Shown: positions 1,451 through 56,562 of the stretch, in pieces
Layout: every line of letters begins with the position of its first letter
Position numbering within the stretch: position 1 is the stretch's first letter
Source: Lytechinus pictus
Lineage: Eukaryota
Direction: 5' to 3'
Assembly (NCBI RefSeq): GCF_037042905.1
Contig: NC_087252.1
Location: forward strand, 3,846,001 to 3,910,000
DNA: 64,000 nucleotides
The notes under the pieces: generated by a model
What the model was told of the DNA's origin: nothing
Seen by the model: only the letters and a program-made list of their open reading frames with translations
The model's database searches: none
Translations under genes and position numbers: made by a program

Positions 1451-2547
1451 TCATAAGTTTTTTTCTCTTATGTGTGTAAGAAGATGTCTATTTAACTTAA
1501 ACGTATGTGAAAATTTCTTTACACAGTATGAACATTCATAGGGTTTTTCACCAGTATGGTTTGAAAGATGGATATTTAGATCGGTTTTCCGAGCAAATTT
1601 CTTTTCACAATGAGAACATTCATGAGGCTTTTCTCCTGTGTGTGTTAGGAGATGTTTCTTGAGAGCACTCTTCTGTGCAAATTTCTTTTTACAGATTTCA
1701 CATTCAAAAGGTTTTTCGCCTGTATGTTTTAGCAGATGATTTTTTAGAGTACTCCTTTGTGAAAATTTCTTTTCACAATGTGAACATTGATAAGTTTTTC
1801 CTCCTGTGTGTGTCAGAAGATGTCTATTAAAGTTACTCTTATCTGAAAATTTCTTTTCGCAATATGAACATTCATAAGGTTTTTCTCCTGTGTGCGTTAG
1901 GAGATGGTTGTTGAGACTACTCCTATGTGTGAATTTCTTTTTACAGTTTTCACATTCAAAACGTTTTTCTCCTGTGTGTGTTAGGAGGTGATTATTGAGA
2001 GTACTCATTCGTGAAAATTTCTTTTCACAATATGAACATTCATAAGGTTTTTCTCCTGTGTGTGTAAAGAGATGAGTGTTGAGGGTACTCCTATATGGAA
2101 ATTTCTTTCCACAATGTGAACATTCATGAGGACCTTCTCCTGAGCGTATTAACAGATGAGTTTTTAGAGTACTCCTTTGTGAAAATCTTTCACAATGTGA
2201 ACGTTCATAATGTTTTTCTCCTTTGTGAGTTCGGAGGTGAATTTTCAAAGAACTTATAAATGAAAATCTCTCTTTACAAAATAAACAGTCAAATTGTTTG
2301 TCTCCTTTATGAGTCAAAAGATGGCATTCAAGATCTCTCTTCTGTGTAAATCCTTTCTCACAGAATTCACATCCATGCAGTTTTCCTCCTGTGTGTAAAT
2401 TGGTTTGTGGAATGGAACATGTGCTTTCACTGGATCTTGGAGATTGATGTAGTCTTTCTCTAGGATGTACTTCATATTGAGATTCACCTTCACCACTTAT
2501 CAAAGAAGATTGTCCTTCCAATTGATGTCCATTGTCACAGATATCTC
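1451..2547 (-). CDS. C2H2 zinc-finger block A (11 finger repeats, third degenerate); probable alternative terminal exon
   Basis: ORF 1451-2557 with tandem C-x2-C...H-x3-H and TGEKPYEC linkers. Minus-strand acceptor cccttaattttctcatgtttcatgtcatcag|GAGATATC puts the exon start at 2547 in phase 1. Confidence 0.85.
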
Positions 2548-2616
2548 CTGATGACATGAAACATGAGAAAATTAAGGGTTTATTTTTAATTCATACTTTC
2601 TGTTGTGTGATCTTAA

Positions 2617-3204
2617 AGGACAAGTCCACCCCAACAAAAACTTGATTTGAATAAAAAGTGAAAAATCCATCAAGCATAACACTGAAAATTTCATCAAAAT
2701 CAGATGTAAAATTAAGAAAGTTATGGCATTTTAAAGTTTCGCTTCATTTCACAAAACAGTTATATGCACATCTCAGTCGGTATGCAAATGAGGAACTGAT
2801 GACATCACCCACTCACTATTTCTTTTGTATTTTATTAAATGAAATATTTTTATTTTCTCGTCATTGTCATGTGAAATGGAGTTTCATCCTCCCTGAACAC
2901 GTGGAATTCCATTATTTTAACATTTTGTGCTTCAGGCAAGGAGGTCCTAATCATCAAATTCATAAAAGTTGAAATATTGTATAATTCAAACAATAAAAAA
3001 CAAAAGAAATAATGAGTGACATCGACTCTCTCATTTGGATGTAACTGGCTCGTTCATATAACTATTTTGTTAAAAATAAGCGAAACTTTGACATGTCATA
3101 ACTTTCTTACCTTACATCTGATTTTGATGAAATTTTCAGCACTGTGCTTGTCTGATTTTTCTCTATTGATTCAAATCAACATTTTTCTGAGGTGGACTTG
3201 ACCT
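2617..3204. mobile_element. Non-autonomous TTAA-targeting DNA transposon (Kolobok-type MITE, 588 bp)
   Basis: TIR AGGACAAGTCCACC / GGTGGACTTGACCT (1 mismatch); TTAA at 2613-2616 and 3205-3208. Paralogous units show the empty site (gatcttaaacattaa near 6995 and 12676). Confidence 0.9.
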
Positions 3205-3649
3205 TTAAACATTAACCAAAATCTAATATTTCTGGGAACAAAAGAAAATGTATCAAATTTAACTCGCTATGACAATTAAAATACATGTATAATGGATCAG
3301 CAAAGATTTTTCTTGTTTGTAAAAGATAGTACAAAGTGTTATCAAAACAAAGTGCAAAATAGTACGAAAAAGTAGAACAACTCCAGTTCTTAATTATCCC
3401 TTTCAGAGAATTCATGAATGTTTGATAGGTTTTCCCACGTGGTTATCTCCAGAAGGGGTGGTGAAAACAAAATCACTTTTTATTTTGTACACTTTTTTAT
3501 TTTACTCTATTAGAACTCATTTTTTTGCAGTGTGAAAATCAAGATGAAAATAACCTAGTTTGGTTTAAAGAAGTGTCCTCATGAAAATCTTGTATAAAAG
3601 ATATTCTCTAAACTTTGCCTTTTCTCTCATGATGTCTTTTATTTACAGC

Positions 3650-5433
3650 ATGGACATTCATAAGGGTTTTCTCCCTTCATTTTGTGTGATAACAATTCAT
3701 TTTTAGATGACTGTATTGAGAAAAAAAAAATGTGAACATTCATAATTTTCTTCCATGTTTGTTGAGAAATTAGATTTGAGATGGTAAATTGTCTAACACC
3801 AGTTCATCTATTTCCATTTTCTTTCAAATCCAGTTGGTTTAATGCCAATTTTTCATTAATTTCACCCCAAATCAGTCCAATTAGATAGCATGGTATAAGG
3901 ACTAAATGGCTATCAGACCAACTGGTTTTTAGACAAATGGTGAATGGACGAAATGACAGTAAGAACATGTGGATAATGGACAATCTGATGGAAGACCAAA
4001 TAATATTAAACAAGTTGGTGTTTGAATGAATTGGGATTACCTGTAGACCAAAAGGAAATAAACTATTGAGATGACTCTTGTGAGAATTTCTTTTTACTGT
4101 GTGAATATTTACAAGGTTTTTTACACTAGTATGTTGACAGATGAACATCCAGATCACTTTTCCATGAAAATTCTTACATGATGAGATCATTCATGAGATT
4201 TTTCTCCTGTGCGTGATAGATGTCTATTTAAGTTAAACTTATGTGAATTTTTTTTTTCACAGTATGAATAATCCTTAATGTTTTCCCCAGTATGGGTTGA
4301 AAGATGGATATTCAGACCGTTTCTCTATGACATTTTCTTTTCACAATGTGAACATTTATAAGCCTTTTCTCCTGTGTGTGTTAGGATATGACTGCACAGG
4401 GAACTCTTCTGTGCAAATCTCTTTTCACAATGTGAATATTCATAAGGTTTTTCTCCTTTGTGTGTTAACAGTTGATAATTTACAGACTTCCTATGTACAA
4501 ATTTCTTTTCACAATCTGGAAATTAAAAAAGTCTTTCTCCTTTGTGTACTACATGTAGCAGATGAGTGTTGAGAGTACTCTCATGTTAACATTTCTTTTA
4601 AAAAATGTGAACATTCACAACGTTTTTCTCTTTTGTGTTAACAGACGATTTTTTAGAATATTCCTCTGTGCAAATTTCTTTCTACAAAGTACACTGTAAC
4701 CATTCACAAGGTTTTTCTCCTGTGTGTGTTACGAAATGAAATTTAAGCCATCTTTTGTTTGAAAATTGCTTTTTACAGTGTGAACATAGGGTTTTTCAAC
4801 AGTATGGGTTGAAAGATGGATATTCAGATTGCTTTTCAGCAATTTTAGTTTTTCACAATGCGAACATTCATAAGGTTTTTCTCTTATGTGTGTGTGTGTA
4901 AAAACAGATTAGTGTTGAGAGTATTACTATATGCAAATTTCTTTTGACAGTATTCGCATTCATAAGGCTTTCTCCTCTGTGTGTAAGCAGATGAGTATTT
5001 CTTTGTGCAAATTTCATTTTACAATAAATGTATGAACAATCATAAGGTTTTTCACAAGTTTGTGTAATCAGATAAGTGTTAAGAGTAGTCGTTTGAACAA
5101 ATTTCTTTCTTAAATTTCTTTCATAAGTTATTTTCTCATGTGTGTTACAAAATGAGATTTGAGCTGATTTTTGAATATTTCTTGTCAGTGTTCACATTCA
5201 CAAGGTTTTCTCTTATGTGTGCTTGGAGATAAATTTTTTAATAACTTATCAATGCAAATCTCTTTTTACAGAATGAACAGTCAATTTTTTTTATCTCCTT
5301 TGTGAGTCAAAAGATGGCATTCAAGATCTCTCTTCTGTGAAAATCCTTTCTCACAGTAGTCACATCCATGCAGTGCATTGACAGATGACCATCCAGACTA
5401 TTTTTACTAATGAACATTCATGGGATTTTACTC
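3650..5433 (-). pseudogene. Decayed finger array downstream of block B, containing a short-repeat MITE remnant (~3800-4050)
   Basis: Degenerate 84-bp finger periodicity; paralogous to ~7430-9296 and ~13100-14900. Confidence 0.7.
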
Positions 5434-6938
5434 CTACGTGTGTGTTAGAAGATGTATTTTTAAGTTACACTTTAGTGAAAATGTCTTTTCACAGTGTGAA
5501 CAATCATAAGGTTTTTCACTAGAATGGGTTGCAAGATGGATATTAAGATCAGTTTTCTGTGCGAATTTCTTTTCACAATGTGAACATTCATGAGGTCTTT
5601 CTCCTGTATGTGTTAGATGTTCGTTGAGAGCACTCTTATGTACAAATTTCTTTTCAATGTTTTCACATTCAAAAGGTTTTTCTCTTGTATATGTTAGCTG
5701 ATGATTATTGAGATGACTCATTCGTGAAAATTTCTTTTCACAATGTGAACATTCATGAGGTTTTTCTCCTGTGTGTGTAAGGAAATGGTTATTGAGAGAA
5801 CTCCTTTGTGAAAATTTCTTTCCACAATGTGAACATTCATAAGGTTTTCCTCCTGTGTGTGTCAGAAGATGTCTATTAAAGTTACTCTTATCTGAAAATT
5901 TCTTTTCGCAATATGAACATTCATAAGGTTTTTCTCTTATGTGTGTTAGAAGATGTCTATTTAAATTACACTTATGTGAAAATTTCTTTTCGCAGTATGA
6001 ACATTCATATGGTTTTTCACCAGTATGGGTTGAAAGATGGATATTTAGATCCCTTTTTTGTGAAAATTTCTTTTCACAATGAGAACATTCATGACGTCTT
6101 TCTCCTGTGTGTGTTAGGAGATGTTTGTTGAGAGCACTCTTCTGTGCGTATTTCTTTTCACAGATTTCACATTCAAAAGGTTTTTCGCCTGTATGTGTAA
6201 GCAGATGATTTCTTAGAGTACTCATTCGTGAAAATTTCTTTTCACAATATGAACATTCATAAGGTTTTTCTCCTGAGTGTGTTAGCAGATGTTTGTTGAG
6301 AGTACTCCTATGTGTGAATTTCTTTTTACAGTTTTCGCATTCAAAAGGTTTTTCGCCTGTGTGTGTTAGCAGATGATCATTGAGAGTACTCATTCGTGAA
6401 AATTTCTTTTCACAATATGAACATTCATAAGGTTTTTCTCCTGTGTGTATCATGAGATGAGTGTTGAGAGTACTCCTATATGGAAATTTCTTTCCACAAT
6501 GTGAACACTCATGAGGTGCTTCTCCTGCGTGTGTTAACAGATGAGTTTTTTTAGTACTCCTTTGTGAAAATTTATTTTCACAACGTAAACGTTCATAACG
6601 TTTTTCTCCTTTGTGTGTTCGGAGGTGAATCTTTAAAGAACTTATCAATGAAAATCTCTTTTTACAAAATGAACAGTCAAATTGTTTATCTCCTTTATGA
6701 GTCAAAAGATGGCATTCAAGATCTCTCTTCTGTGAAAATCCTTTCTCACAGAAGTCACATCCATGCAGTTTTCCTCCTGTGTGTAAATTGGTTTGTGGAA
6801 GGGAATATGTGCTTTCACTGGATCTTGGAGATTTATGATGTAGTCTTTCTCTAGGATGTACTTCATATTGAGATTCACCTTCACCACTTATCAAAGTAGA
6901 TTGTCCTTCCAATTGATGTCCATTGTCACAGATATCTC
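5434..6938 (-). CDS. C2H2 zinc-finger block B (16 finger repeats, 3 degenerate); probable alternative terminal exon
   Basis: ORF 5434-6948; acceptor cccttaattttttcattttttatgccatcag|GAGATATC, phase 1. Confidence 0.85.
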
Positions 6939-7429
6939 CTGATGGCATAAAAAATGAAAAAATTAAGGGTTTTAATTCATTCTTTTTGTAGTGTGATCTT
7001 AAACATTAAACAAAATCTAATATTACTGGGAACAAAAGAAAATGTATCATATTAAACTGGCTATGAGAATTAAAATATATGTATATAAAGATTGTTTTTG
7101 TGAGAGATAGCACCAAGTGTTATTAAAACAAAGTGTAAAATAGTAAGAAAATTAGAACAATTCCAGTTCTAAATTATCACTTTCAGAGGGAGAATTCATG
7201 AATGTTTGATAGGTTTTTCCTAGGGAGTTATCTCCGGAAGGGGTGGTGAAAAAAATATCACTTTTTCTTTTTTCACCTTTTCTATTTTACTCTATTAGAA
7301 CTCATTTTTTTTGCAGTGTAAAAATCAAGATGAAAATAACCTAGTGTGGTTTAAAGAAAAGTGTCCTCATGAAAATCTTGTAAAATATTTTAACTGTGTG
7401 AAAATTTGCTTTTTCTCTCATGATGTCCC

Positions 7430-9296
7430 TGAAGATGTCTTTTTTTACAGCATGGACATTCATTACAGTTTTCTCCCTTATTTGATAACAATTCATTTTT
7501 AGATGACTGTACTGAGAAAATACAAAGTGAACATTCATAAAGTTTTTTCCATGTTTGTCGAGAAATTAGATTTGAGATGGTAAATTGTATAACACCAGTT
7601 CGTCTATTTCCATTTTGTTTCAAAACCAGTTGGTTTAATACCTATTTTTCATTCATTTCATTCATGCTCCCAAAACATTCCAATTAGACCACATGGTATA
7701 AGGACTAAATGGCTATCAGACCAACTGGTTTTTAGACAAATGGTGAGAGGACGAAATGACAGTAAGACCAAGTGGATAATGGACAATCTGATGGAAGACC
7801 AAATAATATTAAACAAGTTAGTGTTTGAATGAATTGGGATTACCGGTAGACCAAATGGAAATAAACCTTTGAGATGACTCTTGTGAAAATTTCTTTTTAC
7901 TGTGTGGATATTTAAAAGTTTTTTTTTTTTACCCTTGTGCGTTAACAGATGAACATCCAGATTACTTTTCCATGAAAATTTTTACACAATTAGATCATTC
8001 ATTAGATTTTTCTCCTGTGTGTGATAGAAGTTGTCTATCTAAATTACACTTATGTGAAAATTTCTTTTCACAATGTGAATAATCCATAAGGTTTTTCCCA
8101 GTATTGGTTGAAAAATGGAAATTCAGATCGTATATCTGTGATAATTTCTTTTCACAATGTGAACATTTATAAGCCTTTTCTCCTGTGTGTGTTAGGATAT
8201 GACTCCACAGGGTACTCTTCTGTGCAAATCTCTTTTCACAATGTGAATATTCATAAGGTTTTTCTCCTGTGTGTGTTAACAGTTGATTATTGACAGACTT
8301 CCTACGTACAAGCTTCTTTTCACAATCTGAAAATTCATAAAGTTTTTCTCCTTTGTGCACTACATGAAGCAGATGAGTGTTGAGAGTACTCTCATGTGGA
8401 CATTTCTTTTAACAATGTGAACTTTCATAAGGTTTTTCTCCTTTGTGTGAACAAACAATTTTTTAGAATATTCTTCTGTGCAAATTTCTTTCTACAAAGT
8501 ACACTATAATCATTTACATGGTTTTTCTCCTGTGTGTGTTACGAAATGAAATTTAAGCCGTCTTTTCTTTGAAAATTTCTGTTCACAGTGTGAACATAAG
8601 GTTTTTCATCAGTATGGGTTGAAAGATGGATATTCAGATTGCTTTTCTGTGATTTTTGTTTTTCACAATGCGAATATTCATTAGGTTTTGTCTCTTAGGT
8701 GTGTGTAAAAACAGATGAGTGTTGAGAGTATTACTACATGCAAATTTCTTTTGACAGTATTCGCATTCATAAGGCTTTCTCCTGTGTGTAAGCAGATGAT
8801 TTTTTAGAGTATTTCTTTGTGCAAATTTCGTTTTACAATGCATCTATGAACAATCATAAGGTTTTTCACAAGTTTGTGTAAGCAGATAAGTGTTGAGAGT
8901 ACTCCTTTGAAAAAATTTCTTTCTCTAATATCTTTCATAAGTTTTTTCTCTTGTGTGTTACAAAATGAGATTTGGGCTGACCTTTGAATATTTCTTGTCA
9001 GTGTTCACATTCACAAGGTTTTCTCTTGTGTGTGCTTGGAGATAAATTTTTTGATAACTTATCAATGAAAATCTCTTTTTACAGAATTAACGGTTAAAAT
9101 GTTCATCTCTTTTGTGAGTCAAAAGATGGCATTCAAGATCTCTCTAATGTGTAAATCCTTTCTCACAATAGGACATCCATGCAGTGCGTTGTAAGATGAC
9201 CATCCAGACTATTTTTACTCATGAACATTCATGAGATTTTATTCCTGTGTGTGTTAGAAGATGTATTTTTAAGTTACACTTATGTGAAAATTTCTT
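7430..9296 (-). pseudogene. Decayed finger array downstream of block C
   Basis: Finger fragments (ORFs 7995-8360, 8634-8843) with stops and frameshifts; paralogous to the tails of B and E. Confidence 0.7.
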
Positions 9297-10579
9297 TTAA
9301 CAGTGTGAACAATCATAAGGTTTTGCCCCAGTATGGGTTGCAAGATGGATATTTAGATCAGTTTTCTGTGTGAACTTCTTTTCACAATGTGAACATTCAT
9401 GACGTCTTTCCCTTGTATGTGTTAGGAGATGTTTGTTGAGAGCATTCTTCTGTGCGTATTTCTTTTCACAGTTTTCGCATTCAAAAGGTTTTTTGCCTGT
9501 ATGTGCTCGCAGATGATTTCTTAGAGTACTCATTCGTGAAAATTTCTTTTCGCAGTATGAACATTCATATGGCTTTTCACCAGTATGGGTTGAAAGATGG
9601 ATATTTAGATCCCTTTTTTGTGAAAATTTCTTTTCGCAGTATGAACATTCATATGGCTTTTCACCAGTATGGGTTGAAAGATGGATATTTAGATCCCTTT
9701 TTTGTGAAAATTTCTTTTCACAATATGAACATTCATAAGGTTTTTCTCCTGTGTGTGTCAGGAGATGAGTGTTGAGAGTACTCCTATATGGAAATTTCTT
9801 TCCACAATGTGAACATTCATAAGGTGCTTTTCCTGTGTGCGTTAACAGATGAGTTTTTAGAGTACTCCTTTGTGAAAATTTCTTTTCACAATATGAACAT
9901 TCATAAGGTTTTTCTCCTGTATGTGTTAGGAGATGTTTGCTGAGAGTACTCCTATGTGTGAATTTCTTTTTACAGTTTTCGCATTCAAAAGGTTTTTCGC
10001 CTGTGTGTGTTAGCAGATGATCATTGAGAGTACTCATTCGTGAAAATTTCTTTTCACAATATGAACATTCATAAGGTTTTTCTCCTGTGTGTATCAGGAG
10101 ATGAGTGTTGAGAGTACTCCTATATGGAAATTTCTTTCCACAATGTGAACACTCATGAGGTGCTTCTCCTGTGTGTGTTAACAGATGAGTTTTTTTAGTA
10201 CTCCTTTGTGGAAATTTCTTTTCACAACGTGAACGTTCATAACGTTTTTCTCCTTTGTGTGTACGGAGGTGAATTTTTAAAGAACTTATCATTGAAAATC
10301 TCTTTTTACAAAATGAACAGTCAAATAGTTGATCTCCTTTATGAGTCAAAAGATGGCATACAAGATCTCTCTTCTGTGTAAATCCTTTCTCACAGAAGTC
10401 ACATCCATGCAGTTTTCCTCCTGCGTGTAAATTGGTTTGTGGAAGGGAATATGTGCTTTCACTGGATCTTGGAGATTGATGTAGTCTTTCTCTAGGACGT
10501 ACTTCAAATTGAGATTCACCTGCACCACTTATCAAAGTAGATTGTCCTTCCAATTGATGTCCATTGTCACAGATATCTC
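9297..10579 (-). CDS. C2H2 zinc-finger block C (13 finger repeats plus one cut by a stop); probable alternative terminal exon
   Basis: ORF 9297-10589; acceptor cccttaattttctgatattttatgccatcag|GAGATATC, phase 1; internal 84-bp finger duplication. Confidence 0.85.
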
Positions 10580-10709
10580 CTGATGGCATAAAATATCAGA
10601 AAATTAAGGGTTTTAATTTATTCTTTCTGTAGTGTGATCTGAAACATGAACCAAAGTCTAATATTACTCTAATATTACTGGGAACAAAAGAAAATGCATC
10701 AAATTAATT

Positions 10710-11513
10710 TTTTTTTACAATGTGAACATTCATTAGGTTTTTCTCCTGTGTGTGTTAGCATATGGCTGTGGAGAGTATTCCTAAGTGCGAATTTCTTTTC
10801 CCCAATGTGAACATTCATAAGGTTTTTCTCCAATGTGTGTTAGCAGATGGTTATTGAGAGTATTCCTAAGCACAAATTTCTTTTCACCATATTTCTTTTT
10901 CATCATTGTGGGTTGATAGATACTTATTTAGATTGCTTTTTTGTGAAAATTTCTTTTCACGTGAACATTCATTAAGGTTTTACTCATGTGTCAGAATATA
11001 AAAAATTCTTTTGACAATATGAGCATACATAGATTTTTCACCAGTATGTAATAGGAAATGTCTGTGTAAGCTACTCCTCTGTGTGAATTTCTTTTCAGTT
11101 TTCACATTCAAAAGGTTTTTTGCCTGTATTTGTTGGTAGATGATCATTGAGAGTACTCATTCGTGAAAATTTCATTCCACAATGTGAACATTCATAAGGT
11201 TTTTCTCCTGTCTTTGTTAGCATATGATCATTGAGAGTACTCCTTTGTGAAAATTTCTTTTCACAATGTGAACATTCATAAGGTTTTCCTCCTGTAGAAG
11301 ATGTCTATTAAAGTTACTCTTATCTGAAAATTTATTTTCTCAATGTGAACATTCATAAGGCTTTTCTTCTGTGTGTGTTACCAGATGAGTGTAAAGAGTA
11401 CTCCTTTGTGAAAATTCCTTTTCACAATGTGAACATTCATAAGGTTTTTCTTCTCTGTGTGGTAGCATGTGATCATTAAGAGTAGTCCTTTGTGAAAATT
11501 TCTTTTCACAATG
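10710..11513 (-). pseudogene. Decayed fingers downstream of block D
   Basis: Finger repeats continue past the TGA at 11514-11516 and accumulate deletions. Confidence 0.7.
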
Positions 11514-12619
11514 TCAACATTCATAAGGTTTTCCTCCTGTGTGTGTCATAAGATGTCTATTAAAGTTACTCTTATCTGAAAATTTCTTTTCGCAACATGA
11601 ACATTCATAAGGTTTTTCTCTTATATGTGTAAGAAGATGTCTATTTAAGTTAAACTTATGTGAAAATTTATTTTCGCAGTATGAACATTCATAAGGTTTT
11701 TCACCAGTATGGGTTGAAAGATGGATATTTAGATCCCTTTTTTGTGAAAATTTCTTTTCACAATAAGAACATGCATGACGTCTTTCCCTTGTATGTGTGA
11801 GGAGATGTTTGTTGAGAGCACTCTTCTGTGCGTATTTCTTTTCACAGATTTCGCATTCAAAAGGTTTTTCGCCTGTATGTGCTCGCAGATGATTTCTTAG
11901 AGTACTCATTCGTGAAAATTTCTTTTCACAATATGAACATTCATAAGGTTTTTCTCCTGTGTGTGTTAGGATATGTTTCTTGAGAGTACTCCTATGTGTG
12001 AATTTCTTTTTACAGTTTTCGCATTCAAAAGGTTTTTCGCCTGTGTGTGTTAGCAGATGATCATTGAGAGTACTCATTCGTGAAAATTTCTTTTCACAAT
12101 ATGAACATTCATAAGGTTTTTCTCCTGTGTGTTTTAGGAGATGAGTGTTGAGAGTACTCCTATATGGAAATTTCTTTCCACAATGTGAACATTCATAAGT
12201 CGCTTCTCCTGTGTGTGTTAACAGATGAGTTTTTTTAGTACTCCTTTGTGAAAATTTCTTTTCACAACGTAAACGTTCATAACGTTTTTCTCCTTTGTGT
12301 GTTCGGAGGTGAATTTCTAAAGAACTTATCATTGAAAATCTCTTTTTACAAAATGAACAGTCAAATTGTTTATTTCCGTTATGAGTCAAAAGATGGCATT
12401 CAAGATCTCTCTTCCGTGAAAATCCTCTCTCACAGAAGTCACATCCATGCAGTTTTCCTCCTGTGTGTAAATTGGTTTGTGGAATGGAATATGTGCTTTC
12501 ACTGGATTTTGGAGATTGATGTAGTCTTTCTCTAGGATGTACTTCAAATTGAGATTCACCTGCACCACTTATTAAAGTAGATTGTCCTTCCAATTGATGT
12601 CCATTGTCACAGATATCTC
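11514..12619 (-). CDS. C2H2 zinc-finger block D (11 finger repeats); probable alternative terminal exon
   Basis: ORF 11514-12629; acceptor cccttaattttctcatattttatgccatcag|GAGATATC. Ends at TGT TGA CAT where other fingers read TGT TCA CAT. Confidence 0.85.
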
Positions 12620-13099
12620 CTGATGGCATAAAATATGAGAAAATTAAGGGTTTTAATTTATTCTTTTTGTAGTGCGATCTTAAACATTAATCAAAATCTA
12701 TACTATTGGGAATAAAATAAAATGTATCAAATTAAACTTGCTATTAGAATTAAAATACATGTATAATTGTTCAGCAAAGATTTTTTTTGTTTTTGTGAAA
12801 GATAGCACCAAGTGTTATTAAAACAAAGAGTAAAATAGTAAGAAAATTAGAACAATTACAGTTGTAAATTATCACTTTCAGAGGGAGAATTCATAAATGT
12901 TTGATAGGTTTTTCCCAGGCGGTTATCTCCAGAAGGGGTGGTGAAAAAAATTCACTTTTTTCGCCTTTTATATTTTACTCTATTAGAACTCTTTTTTTTT
13001 TTTGCAGTGTGAAAATCAAGATTAAAATAACCTAGTGTGGTTTAAAGAAAAGTGTCTACCGGTATGTGAAAATTTGCTTTTTCTCTCATGATGTCCCTG

Positions 13100-16000: not shown

Positions 16001-16388
16001 GAGAACTCCTTTGTGAAAATTTCTTTTCACAAAGTGAACATTCATAAGGTTTTTCTCCTCTGTGTTCGGAGGTGAATTTTTAAAGAACTTATCATTGAAA
16101 ATCTCTTTTTACAAAATGAACAGTCAAATTGTTTATCTCCTTTATGAGTCAAAAGATGGCATTCAAGATCTCTCTTCTGTGAAAATCCTTTCTCACAGGA
16201 GTCACATCCATGCAGTTTTCCTCCTGCGTGTAAATTGGTTTGTGGAATGGAATATATGCTTTCACTGGATCTTGGAGATTGATATAGTCTTTCTCTTTCT
16301 CTACGATGTACTTCATATTTAGATTCACGTGCACCACTTATCAAAGTAGATTGTCCTTCCAATTGATGTCCACTGTCACAGATATCTC
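13100..16388 (-). pseudogene. Zinc-finger block E, frameshifted at the end of finger 2, plus decayed tail
   Basis: Same GDICDSGHQLEGQ start after acceptor catgtttcatgtcattag|GAG at 16388; 2-nt loss in the His/linker codons near 16060 (LRTQRRKTL*); further fragments 15744-15926, 15481-15756, 14192-14494. Confidence 0.75.
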
Positions 16389-17735
16389 CTAATGACATGA
16401 AACATGATTTAATTCTTTAGTCATTCACTCGTATTATCTCTTTATATTATGACCCATCACTCGCATTATCTCTTATTGTGACCCCCGTCCAAAAAAAAAA
16501 GAAAAAGGAAAAAGTCAAATAACACAGAAAGTTTAAATAGACCCCTCAAAAAGGTTCTGCAGCTCAAGTTTGAAAGGTAATGAATTTAAGTGTTCCATCG
16601 TATATGAATACGGTACCATTGGATGATAATTCCTCTTCTTAATAATGCATTATTTGCATATTGTAATGTTTTCATGGAATGCACAGAATTTATAAATATG
16701 CAGCAATGTAAAAATGACATGTTGCAAAATTCATTGTTTCTGATAACGAATTTCCAATTTCCACGGTCGTGTACACTGTATACAAAGGTTAGTAATCGCT
16801 ATATGAAACGTCCTATCAAGATCATTGTTACATGTGCATTTTGCTCAGTATGCAAACTACATGTACATGTAGGAACCAATCAGAAATGCTGTTTTAAAAT
16901 TAGCGATCGATCACTAACCTTTGACACAGTTTGATTGACGCTGATCCACTTCACGGAAGTCCACACATGGTGTACTCTCGTTTGCATTTAATGGATTGAA
17001 TGTGTTTCAAATCACGTTTGAACCATGAAATTTAAAAAGGTTTTAAGATGGTGAACTAAAAAAAAAAATCATTGGTTTAATTGTTGTTTACATTTTAAGT
17101 TTTCACTTCAAGCAAACACAAAATCACACAATATTTCAATCCTTTACAATTTTTATCTGAAACACTTGATCATGCACACAAACAGTGGAAACACATCTCT
17201 TCAACAACACAAACCATTCCTTTCAACTTTTAAATGACCCAAACATTCATTCTCACCTGCTTCCCAAGGGCAAAATTCAAGGAAATGGAGACTCTGGTTT
17301 AAAGAAAACAAAGCATTTTACAACATTTTCACTTCTGACTTTGCCCTAAAATGGCAAATCATCGAAAAGAGGAATAATCCAGCTTTCAAATGATACCACT
17401 TCCACATTTTATAATTCAGTTGCAAAAAAGATATCGTCCCTCACATTCGAGCTGCAGAATTTTTATGGGTTTATATAGTTCAGTGGAGAATTCTCATTTC
17501 ATTGTAATGTCTTTGATATCACATGATTGTTGAAATGAAAGGGGAAAAAAGAGAAGAAAATTTGGATTGCTCTATTGACTTTATTAAGGAGTTTAACATG
17601 AAGCTAAATCAATACTTGTTCATGAAAATTCTAAGGAATTAGATAAATTTAAGTTGGAGGAAACTGCAGATAGTCTTCAAACTGATTTTTATTAAGTTTT
17701 TAATCTACATGTACACTCAACGAAAATGTACACTC

Positions 17736-18684
17736 ACGCAAATCTACGTATCCATGGCATCCGACCAGAAGACATATGCTGTTAATCTACTGAGTGACTG
17801 CCTCAAGGACATCAAGGTCTGGTCAGCGAAGAACAGACTCCGTCTCAACGAAGCCAAATCAGAACTGGTACATCTTTCTTCGCAATTTAGAGCTACGGAG
17901 CCTCTGCCAGACTTCAATATGGGAGAGGGCATACTTAAGATGTCTGACTCTGTCAAAGACCTTGGTGTCACTTTAGACAAGCACCTTACCCTCCAGCCAC
18001 ATATCAGGAACATCTGCAAATCAGCATCATGGGGTTTATTTAGGATTGGTAAGGTCAGGCGACTACTCGACCAAGCCTCTACTGAAAAACTCATTCATGC
18101 CTTCGTCTCATCCCATCTAGACTATTGCAACTCCCTCTTTGCCGGCCTCCCAATTTCTTCCATCTCTCCCCTCCAGCGAATCCTCAACACTGCAGCGAGA
18201 ATGGTAACCTTGAGCAAGAAACACGAACACATCACCCCTATTCTCCGATCACTTCATTGGCTTCCGGTTCACTCTCGCATAACGTTCAAAATTCTACTCA
18301 TTGTATACAAAATTACCCATAATATGTCACCCAAATATCTCCAAGACCTTATTTCCCTTCGTTCTTCCTCTTCTGTCAGATCCTTACGTTCATCATATTC
18401 CAATAATTTAATTCATGGCCCTCGCACTAAGACCCGATATGGTGATCGTGCATTTTCTGTAATTGCTCCCACCCTCTGGAATAAACTCCCAATTCATATC
18501 CAAAATGCTCCCTCCGTAGAAATCTTCAAATCGTCACTTAAAGCTCACCTTTTCTCATAACTTAACTTTTTTTTTTTTTTTTTTTTTTACCGATTGACTG
18601 TATACTATTATAATCTGCCAACCTGTGCGCTTTGAAACACCAGTATAAAGCGCCCTACAAATGTTATTATTATTATTATTATTA
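17736..18684 (+). mobile_element. 5'-truncated L2/CR1-group LINE (RT C-terminal region, 3' UTR, (TTA)n tail)
   Basis: Open frame begins at TQIY (just after the expected YADD motif) and has NRLRLNEAKSE, DLGVTLD, SHLDYCNSL, HITPILRSLHWLP and YGDRAFS..APTLWNKLP; tail gcgccctacaaatg(tta)n. Confidence 0.9.
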
Positions 18685-18962
18685 AATGTAAGCCACTATC
18701 TCTGAACAAAATTATGTAAATTTTGAAAGGAATAATTCAAAGATTTAATATTACATTTCAGGTTTTTTTTTTTCAAAACTCATTTACTACTGTACCTTCT
18801 GAAAAGAAGTGGAACGCCCCTGGCAGTCTCGCCTGCATTACGATTCAATATAGCAGCAATGCTGACTTTGAAAACTGTTAAATGATTATTCACAAAAAAC
18901 ACGAATCATATGATAATACTACATGACCCTAAATGACCTCCGACCTTGATTATGTGATCTAA

Positions 18963-19767
18963 GGGTGTGTTTATGCGCCACTTTTTTACCCTAGAATCAT
19001 GATCTGAATCATGATTCAAATCATGATTCTGCAGAATCACGATTGCATTTAGTCTAAAATGGAAATAAACGTCTTTCAAATCACAAACATGAAACACGGA
19101 AAAAGGGCGTTTAGAAAGACGTTTCTGTAGAATCACGAACGAAAAATGTCGTATAAACGCAATCGTGATTTGAATCATGATTCTATGACGTCACTGTGTC
19201 GGGCTACTTTAGGTTTGACTCTTGCCAAGCTCAAGACGCGCTATGCTCAGTGTATTTATACAAAATATGATATGCATGCATTTCTTGTCACATGCATTTA
19301 ACTGTGTTGGGCATCGCATCGTCCACTTCTTTTGATCTTTTTTTTGTCATGTCGTCAACTTCAAGTGAACTAGTAAATGAACTAACTGAACAGACAATGA
19401 TATCAATTGTGGATGAGTTAACAAGTGTCAATATGAAATTGGATCTACGCTTAAATTTACATCCGAACACAATTTTCGATAAACCGACAAGAAGAATAAT
19501 AAGTAAACAAATTTTGGTATAATAGACTGAATTCGGAAGGTACAGGATTGATTTTTCGAGAGCCAAAACCCGTGCGAAAAAAGTGGACCTAACTTCCTCT
19601 GTCAAACTGCGCACTGTGATGCGCACTGGATCGGTCCGAATCCGAGGAAAAACAGCTTTAAAATGAAGGTTCGTCTGAACGCTGATTCTGTGGTATTGTG
19701 ATTCATGTTTGTTTTTTGAATCATGATTCAAATCATGATTCTGGCTTGAGGTCGCATAAACGCAGCC
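18963..19767. mobile_element. PIF/Harbinger-like MITE (805 bp)
   Basis: TIR GGGTGTGTTTATGCG / CGCATAAACGCAGCC; TAA TSD at 18960-18962 and 19768-19770; subterminal palindromic AATCATGATT arrays at both ends. Confidence 0.8.
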
Positions 19768-20029
19768 TAAGACTCATGCAAATCAATATTTCATTACCCT
19801 TCTGCCCATATTTAATAAACAAGGTCCATATATGGTGTCATTTCAAAAAGGGCAAGTCCAAGAAAAGGTCACCCTAGAAGGCAAAATTTCATCTTTAATT
19901 TAAGAAGTTATCTTTGGTGGGGTAAGAAAGCCAAAATGTTGAATTTCAAAATTTTATTAAGAAAAATTTGATAATATGCATATTTATGCTAATTTGGGGC
20001 ACCTAATTTGCATAATTGGTAAAATGAGT

Positions 20030-22400
20030 GTTACGTATGGGACAATTATAAAATCTCATAGAAAATAAAAACAAAACTTGTGAGATTTAGTTATTGGTGG
20101 GACATGGACCCCTAACATCTTATTCCTTTTGGGGAAAAAAAGTGGTGTCATCTAATTAAATATGCAAATTAGATCTTGTCTAAGGATGGAATGTCCCATA
20201 CGTAACATTTTGAGGATGTTTTTTAAAGTTATTTCTCAAAATACAATACTTGTATTATTGCATCTCTGGGAAGTTCTAATAAATTAAGTATGAAAATGTT
20301 ATACCACAAAAAGTTTCTAAAATATAGTTTACTTTTTAATCAAAAGTTAATTAAAAAATTGTTACGTATGGGACATGTTACGTATGGGATATTTACACAC
20401 AATGTCAATGGGGAGATTTGTGTACAAAGTGAATGGAGAAAAACATCTTTCAAGAGTGCTCTGATTTCATTCAAAACTTTAACTCTTTATCTGTATTTGA
20501 CAGTTTACGGGTTTACAATTCAGCATCCACAAATGATGGAATATTTTTTCCTTGTAAGAAAGGTATTCTCAATAGTCACTCGCACCATCTGGCATGGTTT
20601 GGTAGCCAATGATGTCATGTATGACTCCTTTTTCTTGAAATATTGGATTACAATATTATCCTCCTTAAATATTTTAGGCCTTGTCCAAATAGGACTTGGC
20701 AGCTTCAATGTCTTTTTTTGTACACTGTACCAAACCACAGTTACTTGGCTGCACACTTCAGATAGATAAATCTGTGAGAAACTTTAATAGGGATCAAGTT
20801 CAACTCATCAAGCATTGGTTTTCTCCTGAACACTGCTTGTATGTGGACCCCTCCAAAGGCACTGTACCAAAATTCAGAGTTATGATTTTTTAGCAGGAAT
20901 CTTGCAAGCTGTTTTTCATTGCTAATTATCATATCTGATAATAAACCAAACCACGAGTAATACATGGAAAGCCACGAGGTGAAAGACGCATAGTTAGTAC
21001 CTGATTCTTGCAAAAAGCCACAGCACAGTCTGTTTAGTATTACCTACATGTACAACTTCATATCATTAGCCTTTCCTTTGATGAGCCCTTGGATGTTACA
21101 CTGAAATTCAATTCAGCATCCCCAACCATCAAATACTCCCCCTATACCTCTATAGCTTTTTCCGAGGTCCAGCTCAGTTCTAACCAGGGTACCCCCCAAG
21201 AAAAATTGATCTACATGAAAACAAGGCAACTCACCAAAGTTGCTTAAATGCAAATTTTCGGTCTTGGTTGGGACTTGTTGGTACCTACCTAATTTACTCT
21301 ATCAATTTTTGTGTGTAATGCAAATCTGCTCTGAACCCACATTAGCCCGCTCACGGTAGTTTGCTGTGCAGACCCTAGTTCATCACTAGGGGTATGAATG
21401 GTGGCCGAACAAAGAATGATTTTGAACCAGGCATGTAGCTACTTCAAGCAATATCCAGAATGCTCTTTAAATCTCAGTGTATTCTCACCTGAGATGTTCT
21501 TGCAAAAAAATTGTTTATTTCATGTCCTCGAACACATGCTTTGTGGCAAAAAAGGTTAATTTTAATTAATCAGAAGGAAAGAGTTTTTTCTGATTTTGAA
21601 AGAATGTTTGGTGTTCACAGAGATTTCTTCATACTCTTTTCTACCATAAGAATATTTTATCTATTTCTGCAAATTTCAAAATAAGATCCCTGACGTTGTT
21701 AGCTTTATAAACCTTTCTTAATTAGTAAGACAAAGAAATAACATTCCTTAAAAGATAGGTGAACGTTCTGCTCATTTCTGTAAATGGAGACAGAGAATGT
21801 TCAAGTCATACCTGACTAACTTGAACCATCGCCAAATCTTAATGCACTATAAATATGTTCATTACTATGTATAGTGGTTTTCTCTTGATATGTTCATAAT
21901 TTTGTGTTGATTGATTATGTTATATTCTTTTATCTCAGTACATCATTAAAATATGAATTATGATCCGAGTCTTCACACGAATGGAAAGTTGTCAGGATTT
22001 TTGAAACTGAGGAAACCATGGAGAGGAAAGAAAATAGATGAACTCAACGTCAAATTCAATATTTCCATTGATAGGGGTGAAGTTGGGAAAATTGAAAAAT
22101 ATTAGCCTTTCATAGGCCTAAATGATGTCAGGAACAACATTTTGACTTCATCACTGACTTTATCTTGTAAAATGCTTTAAAAATTATTCGATGTCCTTTT
22201 TTATACACAATATGAGACCGTGAGTGACACGACACAACTTTAACAGTTAATTATAGCTTAACCTTAACACATTGGACCAAGTTACTTTATATACAATAAG
22301 GTATGGGAAAACTGTATTTGCTCCTGTACTGGGATAAATTAATTTTCAGAATACACAGGTCTAGAAAACTTTTTTGTCTTTTAAACGTGAGTGACACGAC
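20030..22400. mobile_element. Probable decayed DNA-transposon remnant with repeated motifs and an eroded minus-strand reading frame
   Basis: GTTACGTATGGGA occurs at ~20030, ~20193 (inverted) and twice at ~20361-20390; CGTGAGTGACACGACA at ~22219 and ~22386; broken codon-like frame ~20500-21550. Ends and family not determined. Confidence 0.35.
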
Positions 22401-23951
22401 ATCCAGTTTTGACAACTTTAAAGATCTACTTTTTTCAGAAAAACACTTCAGATAATTTGTTTTTCTTATTTAGGAGTTAGATACAATACAGAACTTGTAT
22501 CTTACCAACAAATAGGCTTCTAATACAAATTTTATATTGTGATAGGCAATATGTGAATTTTAATGCAAAAATCAGCATTTTGTAACATTTAATTTCCCTT
22601 GCACTAAATTCACTGTATTTCCAGACAAAATTAATAATTTTATGTAACTGAAATGAAAAAACATACTTTGAGATGTTTTCCTATTTATTATTTCATGCAT
22701 GTATTGGGCCTCTTTGGCTGAAATTGGGCTATCCCTATTCCAATTTATTCCCTAAAACAAGTTATAATATGGATAATATGTACAATGAAAATGTGTTTTG
22801 CATGATAAATTTAAGATGTTATGATGGTACATGAAAATGTAACTGGCACCTGATATCTTCAGGCGTGGTTTTCTATTTAGTAGAAAAAAAAAAAAAAGTC
22901 CTATTCATATTTAGTGTGCTTGATCAACAGTTCAAAGTTATACATGTAAGTGTTATGGATGAATAAGAACAGCAAGTACCTTATAACTAAATTTGAAATT
23001 TGCCTAAGAAATTTCGTTTTCAAGTTTTATTTCAACCCCAAGAAAATTAGTCTGATGACTTCCTTAATTGTGTCCTCACTCATCTGTTTTTGCACAAAAT
23101 ATCATCCATAATCCACATGTAGCAGTTATTGTAGCTTAAACATGTTCTGCCAATTGCCAAATGATAATTGTTCAAGACATTTATTTTTTCAATTTTTGTT
23201 TCACCAAACCGTTATAACCTTAAACCCTTTGGTGCCCAGACTTTGCATAATATTGATCAATAAGAGGAAATCAAACTTCCAACAAAATTGAAATGAGGCC
23301 TTGTTTTATTTACCATTTTTGTAGATTCTGATGTGAGTTTTTTCATGAAACTTGGCACATGACTTTTATTTCACAAAGAGATGTAGTAACATATTAACAA
23401 ATATTTGATATGGCAAAGAGTGAGGCAAGGCCTAATTTTTAAAATGTGGACTCACAGAAGCGTATGACATTTATAGGAATTCATAAAAATCTTATAAAAT
23501 GAAGAAAAAAAGGGACGGTCTGTGACAGGTAGCCAAAGAAATTAGAAGGGACTTTTCAGTCTGTGTTTACTGAAGCATGAAGTTTTACTGAATATTTCTT
23601 TGTCATATAGAAGCAATGTTATGTAGTGCAAAAAAACAGTATTAACAGTAGTACGGTACTAACCTTCAAATTTTGAAAATTTCATTTTTTTTCTATTTTG
23701 TTCTCATCACTGTAGAAGATACTCTCCAAATGTGCCAAAAATGCAATTTTATCAAAATTGGTATTGTGCTCATTCAACCATAAAAGTTGAGGCAAAAGTC
23801 ATCCTACAACTGTAGGCCTATGTAAGAAAGCATCTCTTACAAGCCTTCTCAACATGTCTCATGTTGAAAATCTGGAACTATTTCCAACAAAATGGAATCA
23901 ACATCATGATTTTAGGCTTCTGACTTTGAAAAAGACAATTTTTCCTTCTAA

Positions 23952-25625
23952 TAGGAGTGGGCTATAAATGGGTGATTTTTTTGTTTTACTGTGGCAACAG
24001 TTTTTTGTGTTCCTTTTACCTTATCTCAACATGAAATGACAATATTTTTTATCTCGAGTCAGAGAAAAAAGTGTGCCGGGCCAAAATCCAAAATGGCCGC
24101 CAAAACCCCCCAAAATCACATTTTGGGCCACTACTTTTTTATTTGATGGTCTTTTCTCTGGTTTTGGTGTCTATTCATATGTTTTTGAGGGCAGGTAATT
24201 TGTTTTCTTAAAATTAGTAATTTTAAATCATTATTTGTAGAGTTATAAGGTGATTTTACTTAAATTTCCCCATTTTTAAAGCCCCCTTTTCAGCCAAAAA
24301 GTAGGTTTCATCGTCATGTGGTTCTTGGATATACGATACCAGTTGAACAGTAGCAGGCAGCTTATACAGTATAGCTATATTGCTTTTATTCCTCTAACTT
24401 GAGGTTTATGGATATTTGCGAAATATATCTTATCAAATAAAAGAAAATGTCATTTATCCATGGGGCTATATGGTATACAATGTACTGTATGTACTACACT
24501 GCATAAATCCATGCATTGACCACCATGACATATGACAAGGCCTGTATACATATAAACTATAGTGTCATAGAAATGAGCTCCTAAGGTTTAGAATTAGATT
24601 GTGAATTTGACTGCTTGTCAGCTGATGTACATGATGAAACCAGCAACGTAAATTGCACATTTTATAAATATCACATATCATATATACGTACATCACATTT
24701 TAGCCATATTCTTCATTTGGAGGCTTTTTTACCTGGTTGTGGGGTCTAACTGGCGTGTGTTTATGGGGTATAAAGATAACTATTATGGTAATGGTGATCA
24801 ACAGCCAATCAGAATCAAGGATTCCATGCAAGTTACCATAAAGTAAACATAATGTTAAATAGCTAGTGTAAATGCCATGATGTGGGGTTAATTACCTCTC
24901 TCCACCCCCTGAATTAGCATATCTGACAAAACATGTCCTCAATTTCTGAGACAAAACATATCTTCAATTACTGAGGCATCAAATTCTAAACCTGAGAGCT
25001 CATTTCTATGACACTATAGTTTATACAGGCCTTGTTATCTGTCATGGTGGCCAATGCATTTATGCAGTGCAGTATGTACAGTACATTGTATACTGTATAG
25101 CCCCAATTGATAATTGACATATTTTTATTTAATAAGATATATTTCACAAACATCCGTAAAACCCCAATTTAGAGGAATAAAAGCAACATAGCTAGATGAA
25201 GCTGCTTGCTATTGTTGACCTCGTACCATCTAATATCCAAGAACCCCAGGACAATAAAACCTACTTTTAGGCTGAAAAGGCTTTAAAAATTTGAATTTTT
25301 TTGTATAATTACCTTTTTACTCTACAAATAATGGTTTTAAAGTACTAATTAAAGGAAAACAAATTGCCTGCCCTCAAAAACATATGAATAGACACCAAAA
25401 CCAGGGAAAACGACCACCAAATTTATAAAGAAATTGTGGCCAAAACTGTGATTTTAGGGGGTTTTGGCGACCATTTAGGATTTTGGCCCGGCACACATTT
25501 TTCTCGGACCCGAGACAAAAAATATTGTCATTTCATGTTGAGATACATTACAAGGAATTTAAAAAAACGGTTGCCATACTAAAATTACAAAAAAGTATTT
25601 TTGACCCATGTATAGCCCACTCCTA
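23952..25625. mobile_element. Foldback non-autonomous DNA transposon with ~650-bp TIRs and 7-bp TSD
   Basis: Termini TAGGAGTGGGCTATA / TATAGCCCACTCCTA; arms ~23952-24600 and ~24980-25625 are inverted copies; CTTCTAA at 23945-23951 and 25626-25632. Confidence 0.9.
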
Positions 25626-25918
25626 CTTCTAACTTTGCTTTGTACAGAAGGATATTAACATTACAAGTATTTCTAATAAAGATGGAAGCTTAAAAGAAAA
25701 AATACCTACGGATGCATGTAAAGTTTTTTTTTAACTCCTCCTGGTTAAGAAATTATGGATGTTTTGGGGGAGAAGGGGGAGGGGAGACTTACTGTTTTGT
25801 TTTGTGTTCTTTTCTTTTGTTGAGTATACTTTGGATATGCAAAAAATTATTCAGTAATTAGCCCCCCTCCCCATGCCCCCTTTTTAAAAATAATTTAAAG
25901 TAGAACTATTAAAGGTAC

Positions 25919-26524
25919 CTTCTTGTTTTTGTAGATCAAAATCAACTTCATTCTGTTCATCTTCCGGTTCTGTCTTGATGGTGAACGTCGGAGGATGGGA
26001 GATGTCCAAACTATTCTCACCAGCAGACGATGGTGTGGCCGACTCCTCTTCCTTGACGATGAATTGAAAGGTGACTGATGAAAACAAAGCTTCTGATTGG
26101 GAATGTAAGTCACTGTTCTCCAATTCTTGTTTGATTTGTGGTTGGACAGTTCCTACACCCCTAGGAATTGGAGTCTGCATTGGGGTTAGAGTCTCTATTT
26201 CTTCCTTTGGGCTCATGTTTCCTGAAAACATTGAATCTGATTGGGAATCTACATGTAAGTCACTGTTCTCCACTTCTTGTTTGATTTGCAGTTGTAAAGT
26301 TCCTATTTCCCCAGAATTTGAAGACTGCATCAGGATTAAAGTCTCTATCTCTTGCTTTGGGCTTATGTTTCTTGAGAATATTGAATCTGATTGGGAATGT
26401 AACTCATTCATTCCCACTTCTTCCTTGATTTGTGGTTGGTCGGTGGTTCCAATTTCGTCAGGACTTGACAACTGCAGAGGGTTCATGGTCTCCATCTCTG
26501 CATTTTGCTTAAGGATCAAGATTC
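25919..26524 (-). CDS. Upstream (constant) coding exon of the zinc-finger locus; acidic Q/S/E-rich region with internal repeats and psi-K-x-E motifs
   Basis: Inside ORF 25884-26564; acceptor tgtttgtattttcag|GAATC at 26524; donor CAAGAAG|gtacct at 25919 (phase 1). G+GA gives Gly in frame with all finger blocks. Confidence 0.75.
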
Positions 26525-38001: not shown

Positions 38002-38536
38002 TCAACAGGTATTGTGCAGTAAACAGGGCTAGTTGGATGTAATTGCTGCTGGAAGGGAAACTGATTAAAAAGAAGGTGTGCAAACACTCTGAATAAATGC
38101 CTGCCCTGTTGTTCTATCATGAAAACCCAATTGGCAGCTAACTAGGCACCATTTTCTTCAAAATACTCAAACAAATATAAAAATGCCACTTTTGCCATTG
38201 CTTTGACTTTGTATGTAATTTTGGCACTCTCCTACATTGGGGTCTTAAATGCAAGACTAGCACGCGCGTAGTAATCAGAAATACGTGTAGATCGTAGACC
38301 AAAACATAAACAGGCCAGCACCGACACCGGCACCTAGTTTATTGTTAGTAATTCTCTTTCAACATCTTCCTAAGATAGGATTTTCAGTCAAGTTAAAAGG
38401 AATAACATGGCAAGGTAAAATTTGAAGTTTTTATATGGAATTTTATAGCAATGAATGTCTGGTTACTGAAATTCATTACAGAGGGCAAAACTTACTATTA
38501 TTAATTAATGTTATTTGGCTGTAGGCCTACACAATC

Positions 38537-38920: not shown

Positions 38921-39040
38921 CTTAAGTATCACTGTGACTAACTGAGACTACAGTGAGTTTATTAACTAATTTTAGGGAAATTAGGCATAGAGGTCTGGGC
39001 CTAGACTACATAATTATTAAACAAATAAAGTGATCCAAAG

Positions 39041-56540: not shown

Positions 56541-56562
56541 ATTGTTATCTTTTGCACCACAG

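Follow-up and report, generated by a model that had tools for sequence, protein, structure and literature searches.

Tandem copies of a terminal zinc finger exon facing one constant exon in the sea urchin Lytechinus pictus

A locus of Lytechinus pictus carries five tandem C2H2 zinc finger exon copies (A-E), which open at phase-1 acceptors and face a single 606-nt constant exon. This is probably a single poly-C2H2 gene, whose terminal exon has been tandemly copied to give five behind one constant exon, and in which the copies D, C and B serve as composite exons. The intact copies are four (A-D), with 10-13 fingers each, while E is frameshifted and almost unused.

Layout of the locus and its copies

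The window is the whole stretch of 64,000 nucleotides that was analysed (NC_087252.1, 3,846,001-3,910,000); the array occupies 1451..26524, and all coordinates are window-based. The constant exon (25919..26524, minus strand, 606 nt) ends in a phase-1 donor, and has its first in-frame ATG at 26495 and an out-of-frame ATG at 26503. It is acidic and contains about three internal repeats and five [IV]KxE motifs, which may be SUMO-type sites. A Pfam search of this exon and of the paralog protein P0002 found no family, the BTB domain included; no KRAB domain was found in the upstream exon, and P0001 and P0002 had no Pfam match at E 0.01. Within the window, neither a coding exon upstream of the constant exon nor a counterpart of the upstream ATG exon common to the C5 and C9 paralogs was found. 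One candidate for such an exon, at 31964-31737, was dropped, as it sits in a repeat shared with C5; a second lies at 56828-56627.

The layout of the constant exon and the five block acceptors given in the original prediction is confirmed. The acceptors of A to E lie at 2547, 6938, 10579, 12619 and 16388, those of A-D consisting of CCCTTAAT, a pyrimidine tract and CAG, and that of E having TAG but lacking CCCTTAAT. As claimed, an intronic ATG precedes the acceptor by 10 nt and has a pyrimidine (T) at -3, and no copy of the constant exon lies between the blocks. The best pyrimidine-rich acceptor is phase 1 in 32 of 32 zinc finger exons here and at related loci, which are related copies and not independent trials. 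The donor at 25919 is likewise phase 1 and fuses in frame with any block, giving 557, 693, 619, 560 and 307 aa for A to E; in E, however, the reading frame is soon lost by frameshift. The suggestion that the array extends to the left of the window is ruled out, since genome-wide searches return these five block starts only and the 10 kb of left flank contain no finger-linker motif.

Block A (1451..2547, minus strand; 364 codons, 10 fingers) is the last copy and the dominant ending, and matches PF00096 and PF13465 as a tandem C2H2 array on one 3' exon. Five further intact fingers (895..1467, minus strand) lie behind it in another frame, after a +1 slip within seven consecutive A that is either a real allele or an assembly error, and are followed by AATAAA at 879. 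Block B (5434..6938, minus strand) has 500 codons and 13 strict fingers, and AGTAAA directly after its stop. Block C (9297..10579, minus strand; 426 codons) has 12 fingers with internal finger duplications and AATAAA at 9243, and its acceptor lies only about 130 nt from the decayed D fingers. The AATAAA of C and A occupies the site homologous to the AGTAAA of B. Block D (11514..12619, minus strand; 367 codons, 10 fingers) is close to a truncated B and terminates at a nonsense codon within a finger. Block E (16042..16388, minus strand) had been counted among five alternative 3' exons; it is instead a pseudo-exon with a weak acceptor, 114 in-frame codons, one strict finger and a frameshift after finger 2.

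The five blocks are homologous last exons of the same phase that arose by tandem duplication, and differ by about 3-6% substitutions in their colinear coding parts. The diversity of the fingers is limited, as the first 4-5 hardly differ between copies; together with the closeness of D to a truncated B, this leaves about three finger patterns overall. The intron upstream of A holds a MITE-like insertion of about 590 bp with short terminal inverted repeats (2614..3204, boundaries approximate), recognized from an alignment break at 2617/3205 and from inverted ends read from the sequence; it leaves the branch-like motif and the acceptor undisturbed.

Splicing of the constant exon and of the copies

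The RNA data comprise stranded reads from three rRNA-depleted runs (X19-21) and contigs from a second study (X1, presumed to be RNA). Reads were compared with 25919-26169 and the start of block E, and blocks were distinguished by single letters, among the 40 best-supported ones. The constant-exon donor is joined to a block start in 43, 34 and 39 reads of the three runs, so the predicted splicing from 25919 is found in every run and in X1. These reads fall on the joint 16387>25918 (GT-AG; 19, 14 and 14 reads and an X1 contig) and on 16388>25922 (24, 20 and 25 reads). The latter is 3 nt shorter and fits an allele without one AAG; a tandem (NAGNAG) acceptor, which would read 16385>25919, was rejected. 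The joints at 26155 and 26169 were disregarded, being attributed to the internal repeats of the constant exon where the compared stretch ends.

Overlooked in the original prediction is an internal donor at exon position +60 in A-D, which closes a 60-nt head in B (6879..6938, minus strand, AAG|GTGAAT), C (10520..10579, minus strand, CAG|GTGAAT) and D (12560..12619, minus strand, CAG|GTGAAT), and is also present in A and absent from E. It is spliced in frame to the acceptor of another block in 15, 23 and 20 reads, with heads of both types: the joint 16389>16330 (9, 18 and 18 reads and an X1 contig) has a C/D-type head, and 16390>16332, with one T between (6, 5 and 2 reads), an A/B-type head. Internal-donor use within the exon amounts to 58 joint reads over the three runs and one contig. 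All four joint coordinates agree exactly with those expected from constant exon to block, the 3-nt-shorter form of it, C/D head to acceptor and B/A head to acceptor. In total there are 58, 57 and 59 joints, where the depth over exon position 16 is 81, 76 and 73, and the first mate lies on the plus strand for all reads in both exon bins and on the minus strand for none, which fits minus-strand RNA in a stranded library.

The two head types and their in-frame joints to an acceptor mean that a single transcription unit uses three acceptors or more. The predicted choice by splicing among duplicated terminal exons therefore stands as regards one transcription unit, a spliced constant exon and several acceptors in use. 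It falls as regards five working alternatives and a simple mutually exclusive choice, since E is broken and nearly silent, and much of the use of upstream copies is as 60-nt in-frame cassettes that hand the transcript on.

Under the single-gene model, the copied unit would comprise the last exon, a few hundred bases of the intron before it and a decayed finger tail, and D, C and B would each be a composite exon. Where the +60 donor is used, 20 codons would be added and the transcript would move to a later copy; where it is not, the whole finger array would be read and the transcript would end there. The output would be mostly A-type protein, with or without extra 20-residue inserts, and a minority of B-, C- or D-type proteins, perhaps up to about a third and possibly much less, all sharing the N-terminus and the first 4-5 fingers and differing in their C-terminal fingers. 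More speculatively, the constant N-terminus, judged by its possible SUMO-type sites, could act as a repressor, and the fingers might recognize repeats or transposons, by analogy with what has been proposed for large metazoan ZNF families.

Endings in use and alternative readings

Block A is the main ending and E is essentially unused. At exon position 136, the A-type letter is found in 155 of 232 reads (53/82, 63/84 and 39/66 per run), and the single X1 contig over positions 85-162 is A-type. E-type letters occur in 0/232 reads at 16329, 0/255 at 16320, 0/236 at 16304 and 1/232 at 16256, and in 8/81 reads at 16373 in X19; at position 105, 15 of 225 reads lack the A-D letter. The remaining 77 of 232 reads have a non-A letter at position 136, and a C/E-type letter appears in 16 of 219 at position 162, with E-type letters almost absent from four other sites. 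Full-length use of B-D is likely, on the strength of these non-A letters and of preserved frames, and is confounded by alleles: the RNA animals differ from the assembly and the shares are allele-sized, so the non-A third could be an allele of A. The share of 3-nt-shorter donor joints (69/116) cannot be distinguished from the A-type share (155/232; Fisher p = 0.19).

The preserved frames come from comparisons between copies. Three coding comparisons (2,484 aligned nt, 102 substitutions) contain no frameshifting indel against about 13 expected, whereas three tail comparisons (410 substitutions) contain 54; openness was part of how the coding stretches were defined, which biases the test, sequences recur between the comparisons, and gene conversion could have kept the 5' parts intact. 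For the first 225 codons, dN/dS lies at 0.9-1.1 when B, C and D are compared with each other and at 0.51-0.75 when they are compared with A, without significance in any case (p 0.06-1.0); the full B-D comparison gives 0.52 (p 0.052).

The strongest rival, which we regard as improbable though serious, makes A the sole productive ending: B-E would be young decaying duplicates with acceptors that are still recognized, bypassed by the +60 donor, the 20-residue inserts harmless and the non-A letters alleles of A. It draws on the A-type majority and A-only contig, the allele-sized ratios, the dN/dS near 1 among B, C and D, the nonsense codon ending D and the broken E. It has to explain, however, why B, C and D have kept open frames of 367-500 codons when 14-23 frameshifting indels per 1.75 kb set their tails apart, why B stops just before its AGTAAA at the site where C and A have AATAAA, and the 7% C-type class at position 162, which misfits a simple heterozygote.

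Far less probable is that the joints leading back 60 nt come from back-splicing (circular RNA), from trans-splicing that links copies or from a 60-nt stretch duplicated in the genomes of the animals sampled. Libraries X19-21, being rRNA-depleted, keep circles, the acceptor following the head is indistinguishable among blocks in the read comparison, and lola uses trans-splicing (10.1101/132027). Against this, both joint ends coincide with a donor and an acceptor, there are two head sequence types, one of them also in the second study, and the shorter joint side is at most 61 letters in all three runs, as expected if another splice precedes the head; even circles would mean several acceptors used in one transcript. 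Finally, a tandem cluster of separate single-exon zinc finger genes starting at the ATG 10 nt upstream of the acceptor is very unlikely: that ATG is in frame at every block, and loose ends at the E acceptor are absent among the rows listed, with a small unspliced class possible, but spliced joints make up about three quarters of the depth at exon position 16, block-start depth (47-56) matches constant-exon depth (51-61), the C acceptor has little room before the D fingers and the ATG context is poor.

Related loci, known systems and meaning

Eight other units were examined, most of them picked from match clusters, and seven appear, from their sequence, to stack 2-9 phase-1 zinc finger exons behind a last constant-type exon; a neighbouring locus at C8:3766430-3797423 seems to hold up to nine intact, divergent finger arrays, with a candidate constant-type exon that ends at about 3766553. 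The C5 paralog has two finger exons, the first of which likewise carries a donor-like AAG|GTAAAT at +60. Donor-like +60 sites, present in 7 of the 11 exons at the left-hand locus, were discounted, as they coincide with a repeated Ser-Gly-Asp codon pattern and comparable sites are seen at further multiples of three. When annotated isoforms of the array locus were sought by protein search, the one match was P0002, the C5 paralog, which is weak evidence, and the four block ORFs from the intronic ATG had no exact protein match, although RefSeq may already list isoforms. Atlas scores were 0.82-0.83 only.

A lola-type arrangement is known from further tramtrack-group BTB genes, namely broad, fruitless and mod(mdg4). 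In lola and its group, a constant N-terminus is joined to alternative 3' zinc finger exons (10.1101/132027). The sea-urchin locus shares a constant N-terminus facing an array of such exons, here probably alternative, and differs in that no BTB domain was found by Pfam in the constant exon or P0002, in that each variable exon is a 10-13-finger tandem array, and in that the copies are young and made skippable in frame by the +60 donor.

There are human KRAB genes that carry two alternative finger exons or form read-through fusions. KRAB-ZNF and fish FiNZ-ZNF genes are described with one finger exon per gene (PMC4592553; PMC10547256). They resemble this locus in having an acidic N-terminal exon ahead of one 3' exon that encodes a long C2H2 array, and in rapid turnover by duplication, the likeness of the constant exon to FiNZ being its acidic make-up only; here, in contrast, several copies of the finger exon lie behind one N-terminal exon, in which no Pfam domain such as KRAB was found.

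Among human tandem-duplicated exon substitutions, duplicated last exons swap the C-terminus in 77 of 236 events, and ZFP64 has a duplicated alternative C-terminus involving a truncated exon (PMC9741552; PMC8373072). Those substitutions are mostly ancient, whereas the sea-urchin array is young, has five copies and a layout that recurs across the gene family. In the IgM secreted/membrane switch, a composite internal/terminal exon has an internal donor that competes with read-through to a poly(A) site; here the composite exon is repeated in tandem, which would form a chain of exits. No published description of sea-urchin zinc finger genes with stacked terminal finger exons was found.

Large zinc finger families are usually described as growing by the copying of genes with one finger exon each. 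At this locus, the finger exon alone has been copied. A new copy gains a promoter and an effector part at no cost, and since the internal donor lets transcripts skip it with the frame intact, it can be tested at a low dose. A tentative extension is that the sea-urchin poly-C2H2 repertoire consists largely of stacked terminal finger exons with shared promoters and N-termini, the array being selected through a conserved in-frame donor at about 60 nt. L. pictus being an experimental animal, the putative switch is open to direct testing. If general, the arrangement would change the way in which sea-urchin zinc finger genes are counted and knocked down and their evolution is modelled; family-wide, it would mean that zinc finger ORF counts overstate gene number, and would provide a BTB-independent splicing route to diverse multi-finger DNA binding.

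Splicing of the constant exon to tandem zinc-finger exons

The constant exon (26524-25919, - strand, 606 nt) is spliced to the start of the zinc-finger blocks, as the original prediction had proposed, and junction reads in three runs and one contig support this directly. RNA was mapped to window positions 16170-26169, which hold the donor and the start of block E. The data came from three raw stranded RNA runs of one study (X19-21, about 6% of each being used) and from contigs of a single run in a second study (X1), which is RNA by our guess. Because the block starts are almost identical, reads from every block map onto E, and block-specific letters were fixed before mapping. The GT-AG junction from donor to block start is seen in 19, 14 and 14 reads (X19-21) and in the contig. 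A 3-nt-shorter version, in which the last three nucleotides of the constant exon (25919-25921) are missing, accounts for over half of the X19-21 donor joints (24, 20 and 25 reads; none in X1), and is probably an in-frame allele.

Further joints appear to go back by about 60 nt: 9, 18 and 18 reads and one contig of C/D type, and 6, 5 and 2 reads of A/B type. Simulated splicing of a donor after exon position 60 onto a block acceptor reproduces them. In E this donor is destroyed; C and D have it as CAG|GTGAAT, A and B as AAG|GTGAAT. The 60-nt head that it closes adds 20 codons in frame. On a linear reading, the A/B-type joints run from the head of B to A, which is the last copy in the array, and the C/D-type joints from the head of C or D to a later block, so that at least three acceptors are in use within one transcription unit. 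Reads over the constant exon and the block start come from a single strand and have about the same depth on both. At exon position 16 the depth is 81, 76 and 73, of which joints (58, 57 and 59) account for roughly three quarters, so separate promoters could contribute little.

The predicted choice among copies stands insofar as several acceptors are used; E is nearly silent, and much of the use of upstream blocks takes the form of 60-nt head joints. E-type letters are found in 0/232, 0/255, 0/236 and 1/232 reads at 16329, 16320, 16304 and 16256, and E's letter at 16373 in 8/81 X19 reads. The A-specific letter at exon position 136 is carried by 155/232 reads and the C/E letter at position 162 by 16/219, the letters coming from the best 40 of 811 rows and indels from the best 12 of 95, with the most informative positions (42, 47, 58, 73 and 82) outside these rows. 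At face value, A makes up about two thirds of the endings, C 7%, and B or D together a quarter, although alleles may confound these shares. The sampled animals have alleles foreign to the assembly: the 3-nt variant is found in 69/116 joints, a share not different from that of the A letter (p = 0.19), and the A-D letter at position 105 is absent in 15/225 reads. The sole X1 contig at these positions is A-type. A is shown to be dominant.

Layout and conservation of the blocks

The sequence bears out the acceptors of blocks E, D, C, B and A (16388, 12619, 10579, 6938 and 2547), the branch-like motif shared by A-D, the ATG within the intron, and the donor at 25919, which is in phase 1. Four of the five endings (A-D) are long and open, E being frameshifted after finger 2: E, D, C, B and A stay in frame for 114, 367, 426, 500 and 364 codons past the acceptor, with 1, 10, 12, 13 and 10 strict fingers. 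Each unit consists of the acceptor, a short leader and a finger array, followed by 2-3 kb of decayed fingers and AT-rich spacer. Most of the tail is missing in D, the intron upstream of A has a MITE-like insertion, and that upstream of E is dissimilar to the others. Blocks C and A are followed by AATAAA at a homologous position, and B by AGTAAA. Block A ends at 10 fingers by a +1 slip in a seven-A run near 1460, which is either an allele or an assembly error; five intact fingers follow in another frame. Recognition residues (-1, 2, 3, 6) are almost identical across copies in the first 4-5 fingers, and diverge beyond them among A, B/D and C. The array does not continue leftward as had been suggested, since the block start occurs just five times at high identity in the genome.

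The B-D, B-C and A-B coding comparisons hold no frameshifting indels in 2,484 aligned nt, against 54 in about 5,200 nt of three tail comparisons and about 13 expected from substitutions, a test biased by coding stretches being defined as open and by comparisons sharing sequences. The reading frames look protected; dN/dS among A-D (0.5-1.1, never significant) reveals no significant amino-acid constraint.

The constant exon is single-copy in the window, with diverged paralogs on contigs C9 and C5. As it is open from its phase-1 acceptor, and both paralogs have an ATG exon upstream, the N-terminus may exceed 192 residues; a search for the window gene's first exon did not find it.

The long intron also holds a fragment resembling a LINE 3' end by eye (17643-18557, + strand; no Pfam match) and a 650-bp inverted repeat pair of 82% identity (23952-25625). 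Elsewhere, a His-Me finger ORF (PF05551, + strand) lies opposite a split Mutator-like transposase (PF20700, - strand) at 38525-41108. The pair would fit KolobokP, which excerpts of PMC9587614 report from L. pictus. Exon-like open frames at 56259-57376 (+), immunoglobulin-domain-like by eye, belong to an unrelated gene on the opposite strand.

Related units in the genome

Eight further units were examined: the paralogs on C5 and C9, two units that lie left of the window, and four groups of genome-search hits, a biased sample in that these four were picked for clustering. The acceptor is in phase 1 in all 32 scored finger exons, the window's five included; the donors of constant-type exons are in phase 1 as well, less clearly so on C2. 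Behind the last constant-type exon stand two finger exons on C5, two on C2, three on C13, three at C8:15.9 Mb, four on C12, two and nine in the left units, and one on C9; a further exon, C8:15938803, was left unassigned. No constant-exon copy was found between finger exons of these units; the single strong match, on C12, is an additional constant-type exon ahead of the first finger exon. A 21-nt match in the second left unit (E 0.008) was set aside.

This second left unit (G000:C8:3766430-3797423, +, loci L012-L015), about 50 kb from the window, has nine intact, divergent finger exons with 2-12 strict fingers behind its last constant-type exon, with no constant exon intervening. Its nine arrays (C8:3770775-3797423) have clearly different recognition residues; two starts, 3771565 and 3776050, look decayed. 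It would serve better for testing than the window itself.

On C5, a donor-like AAG|GTAAAT lies exactly 60 nt past the acceptor of the first finger exon (G000:C5:10875649-10875708, L023). The last C5 finger exon has none at +60, nor does this pattern find one on C2, C13, C12, C8:15.9 Mb or C9. Protein P0002 supports, as a gene model, an arrangement on C5 in which an ATG exon is followed by the constant exon and then by the first finger exon, and RefSeq XP_054755828.1 from L. pictus matches this locus almost letter for letter, save an insertion and the last residues. At C9:21530030 (L017) and several L012-L015 acceptors, GT follows the acceptor immediately (CAG|GTAAAC on C9); it might rebuild a donor after splicing, recursive-splice-like, or be due to chance. 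Strings of short, repeated, IKQE-like constant-type exons with phase-1 donors precede the finger exons at L052 (G000:C8:15905334-15906862) and L056-L057 (C12:26448726-26456010).

Proposed mechanism and known systems

One transcription unit with several acceptors in use and a working internal donor is shown by the RNA. In the mechanism we propose, the +60 donor would compete with read-through to the poly(A) site, the outcome setting the ending; read-through transcripts spliced later at a downstream +60 donor would perhaps undergo nonsense-mediated decay. The [IV]KxE motifs of the constant exon, which we take to be the SUMO-type consensus, could speculatively confer a repressor role. The fingers might, again speculatively, target transposons, as proposed for metazoan ZNFs, sea urchin included, in excerpts of PMC10547256.

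The gene works like lola, which is described with 20 protein isoforms and a BTB domain (10.1101/132027), yet it is not a member of the lola family. Excerpts of other sources describe a FiNZ exon with one finger exon, without 'splic' wording (PMC10547256), KRAB fingers mostly on one 3' exon (PMC4592553), and human duplicated C-terminal exons, ZFP64 among them (PMC9741552, PMC8373072); the isoform tables of these human papers may hold further ZNF cases. Excerpts of PMC2865497 and PMC3971581 hold nothing on stacked finger exons, and an abstract-level search found none for sea urchins. RefSeq models might already contain these isoforms. The feature itself is real and RNA-supported. Its new aspects are that the variable part is an entire multi-finger array, that the copies contain an in-frame exit donor which is used, and that the layout recurs across the family.
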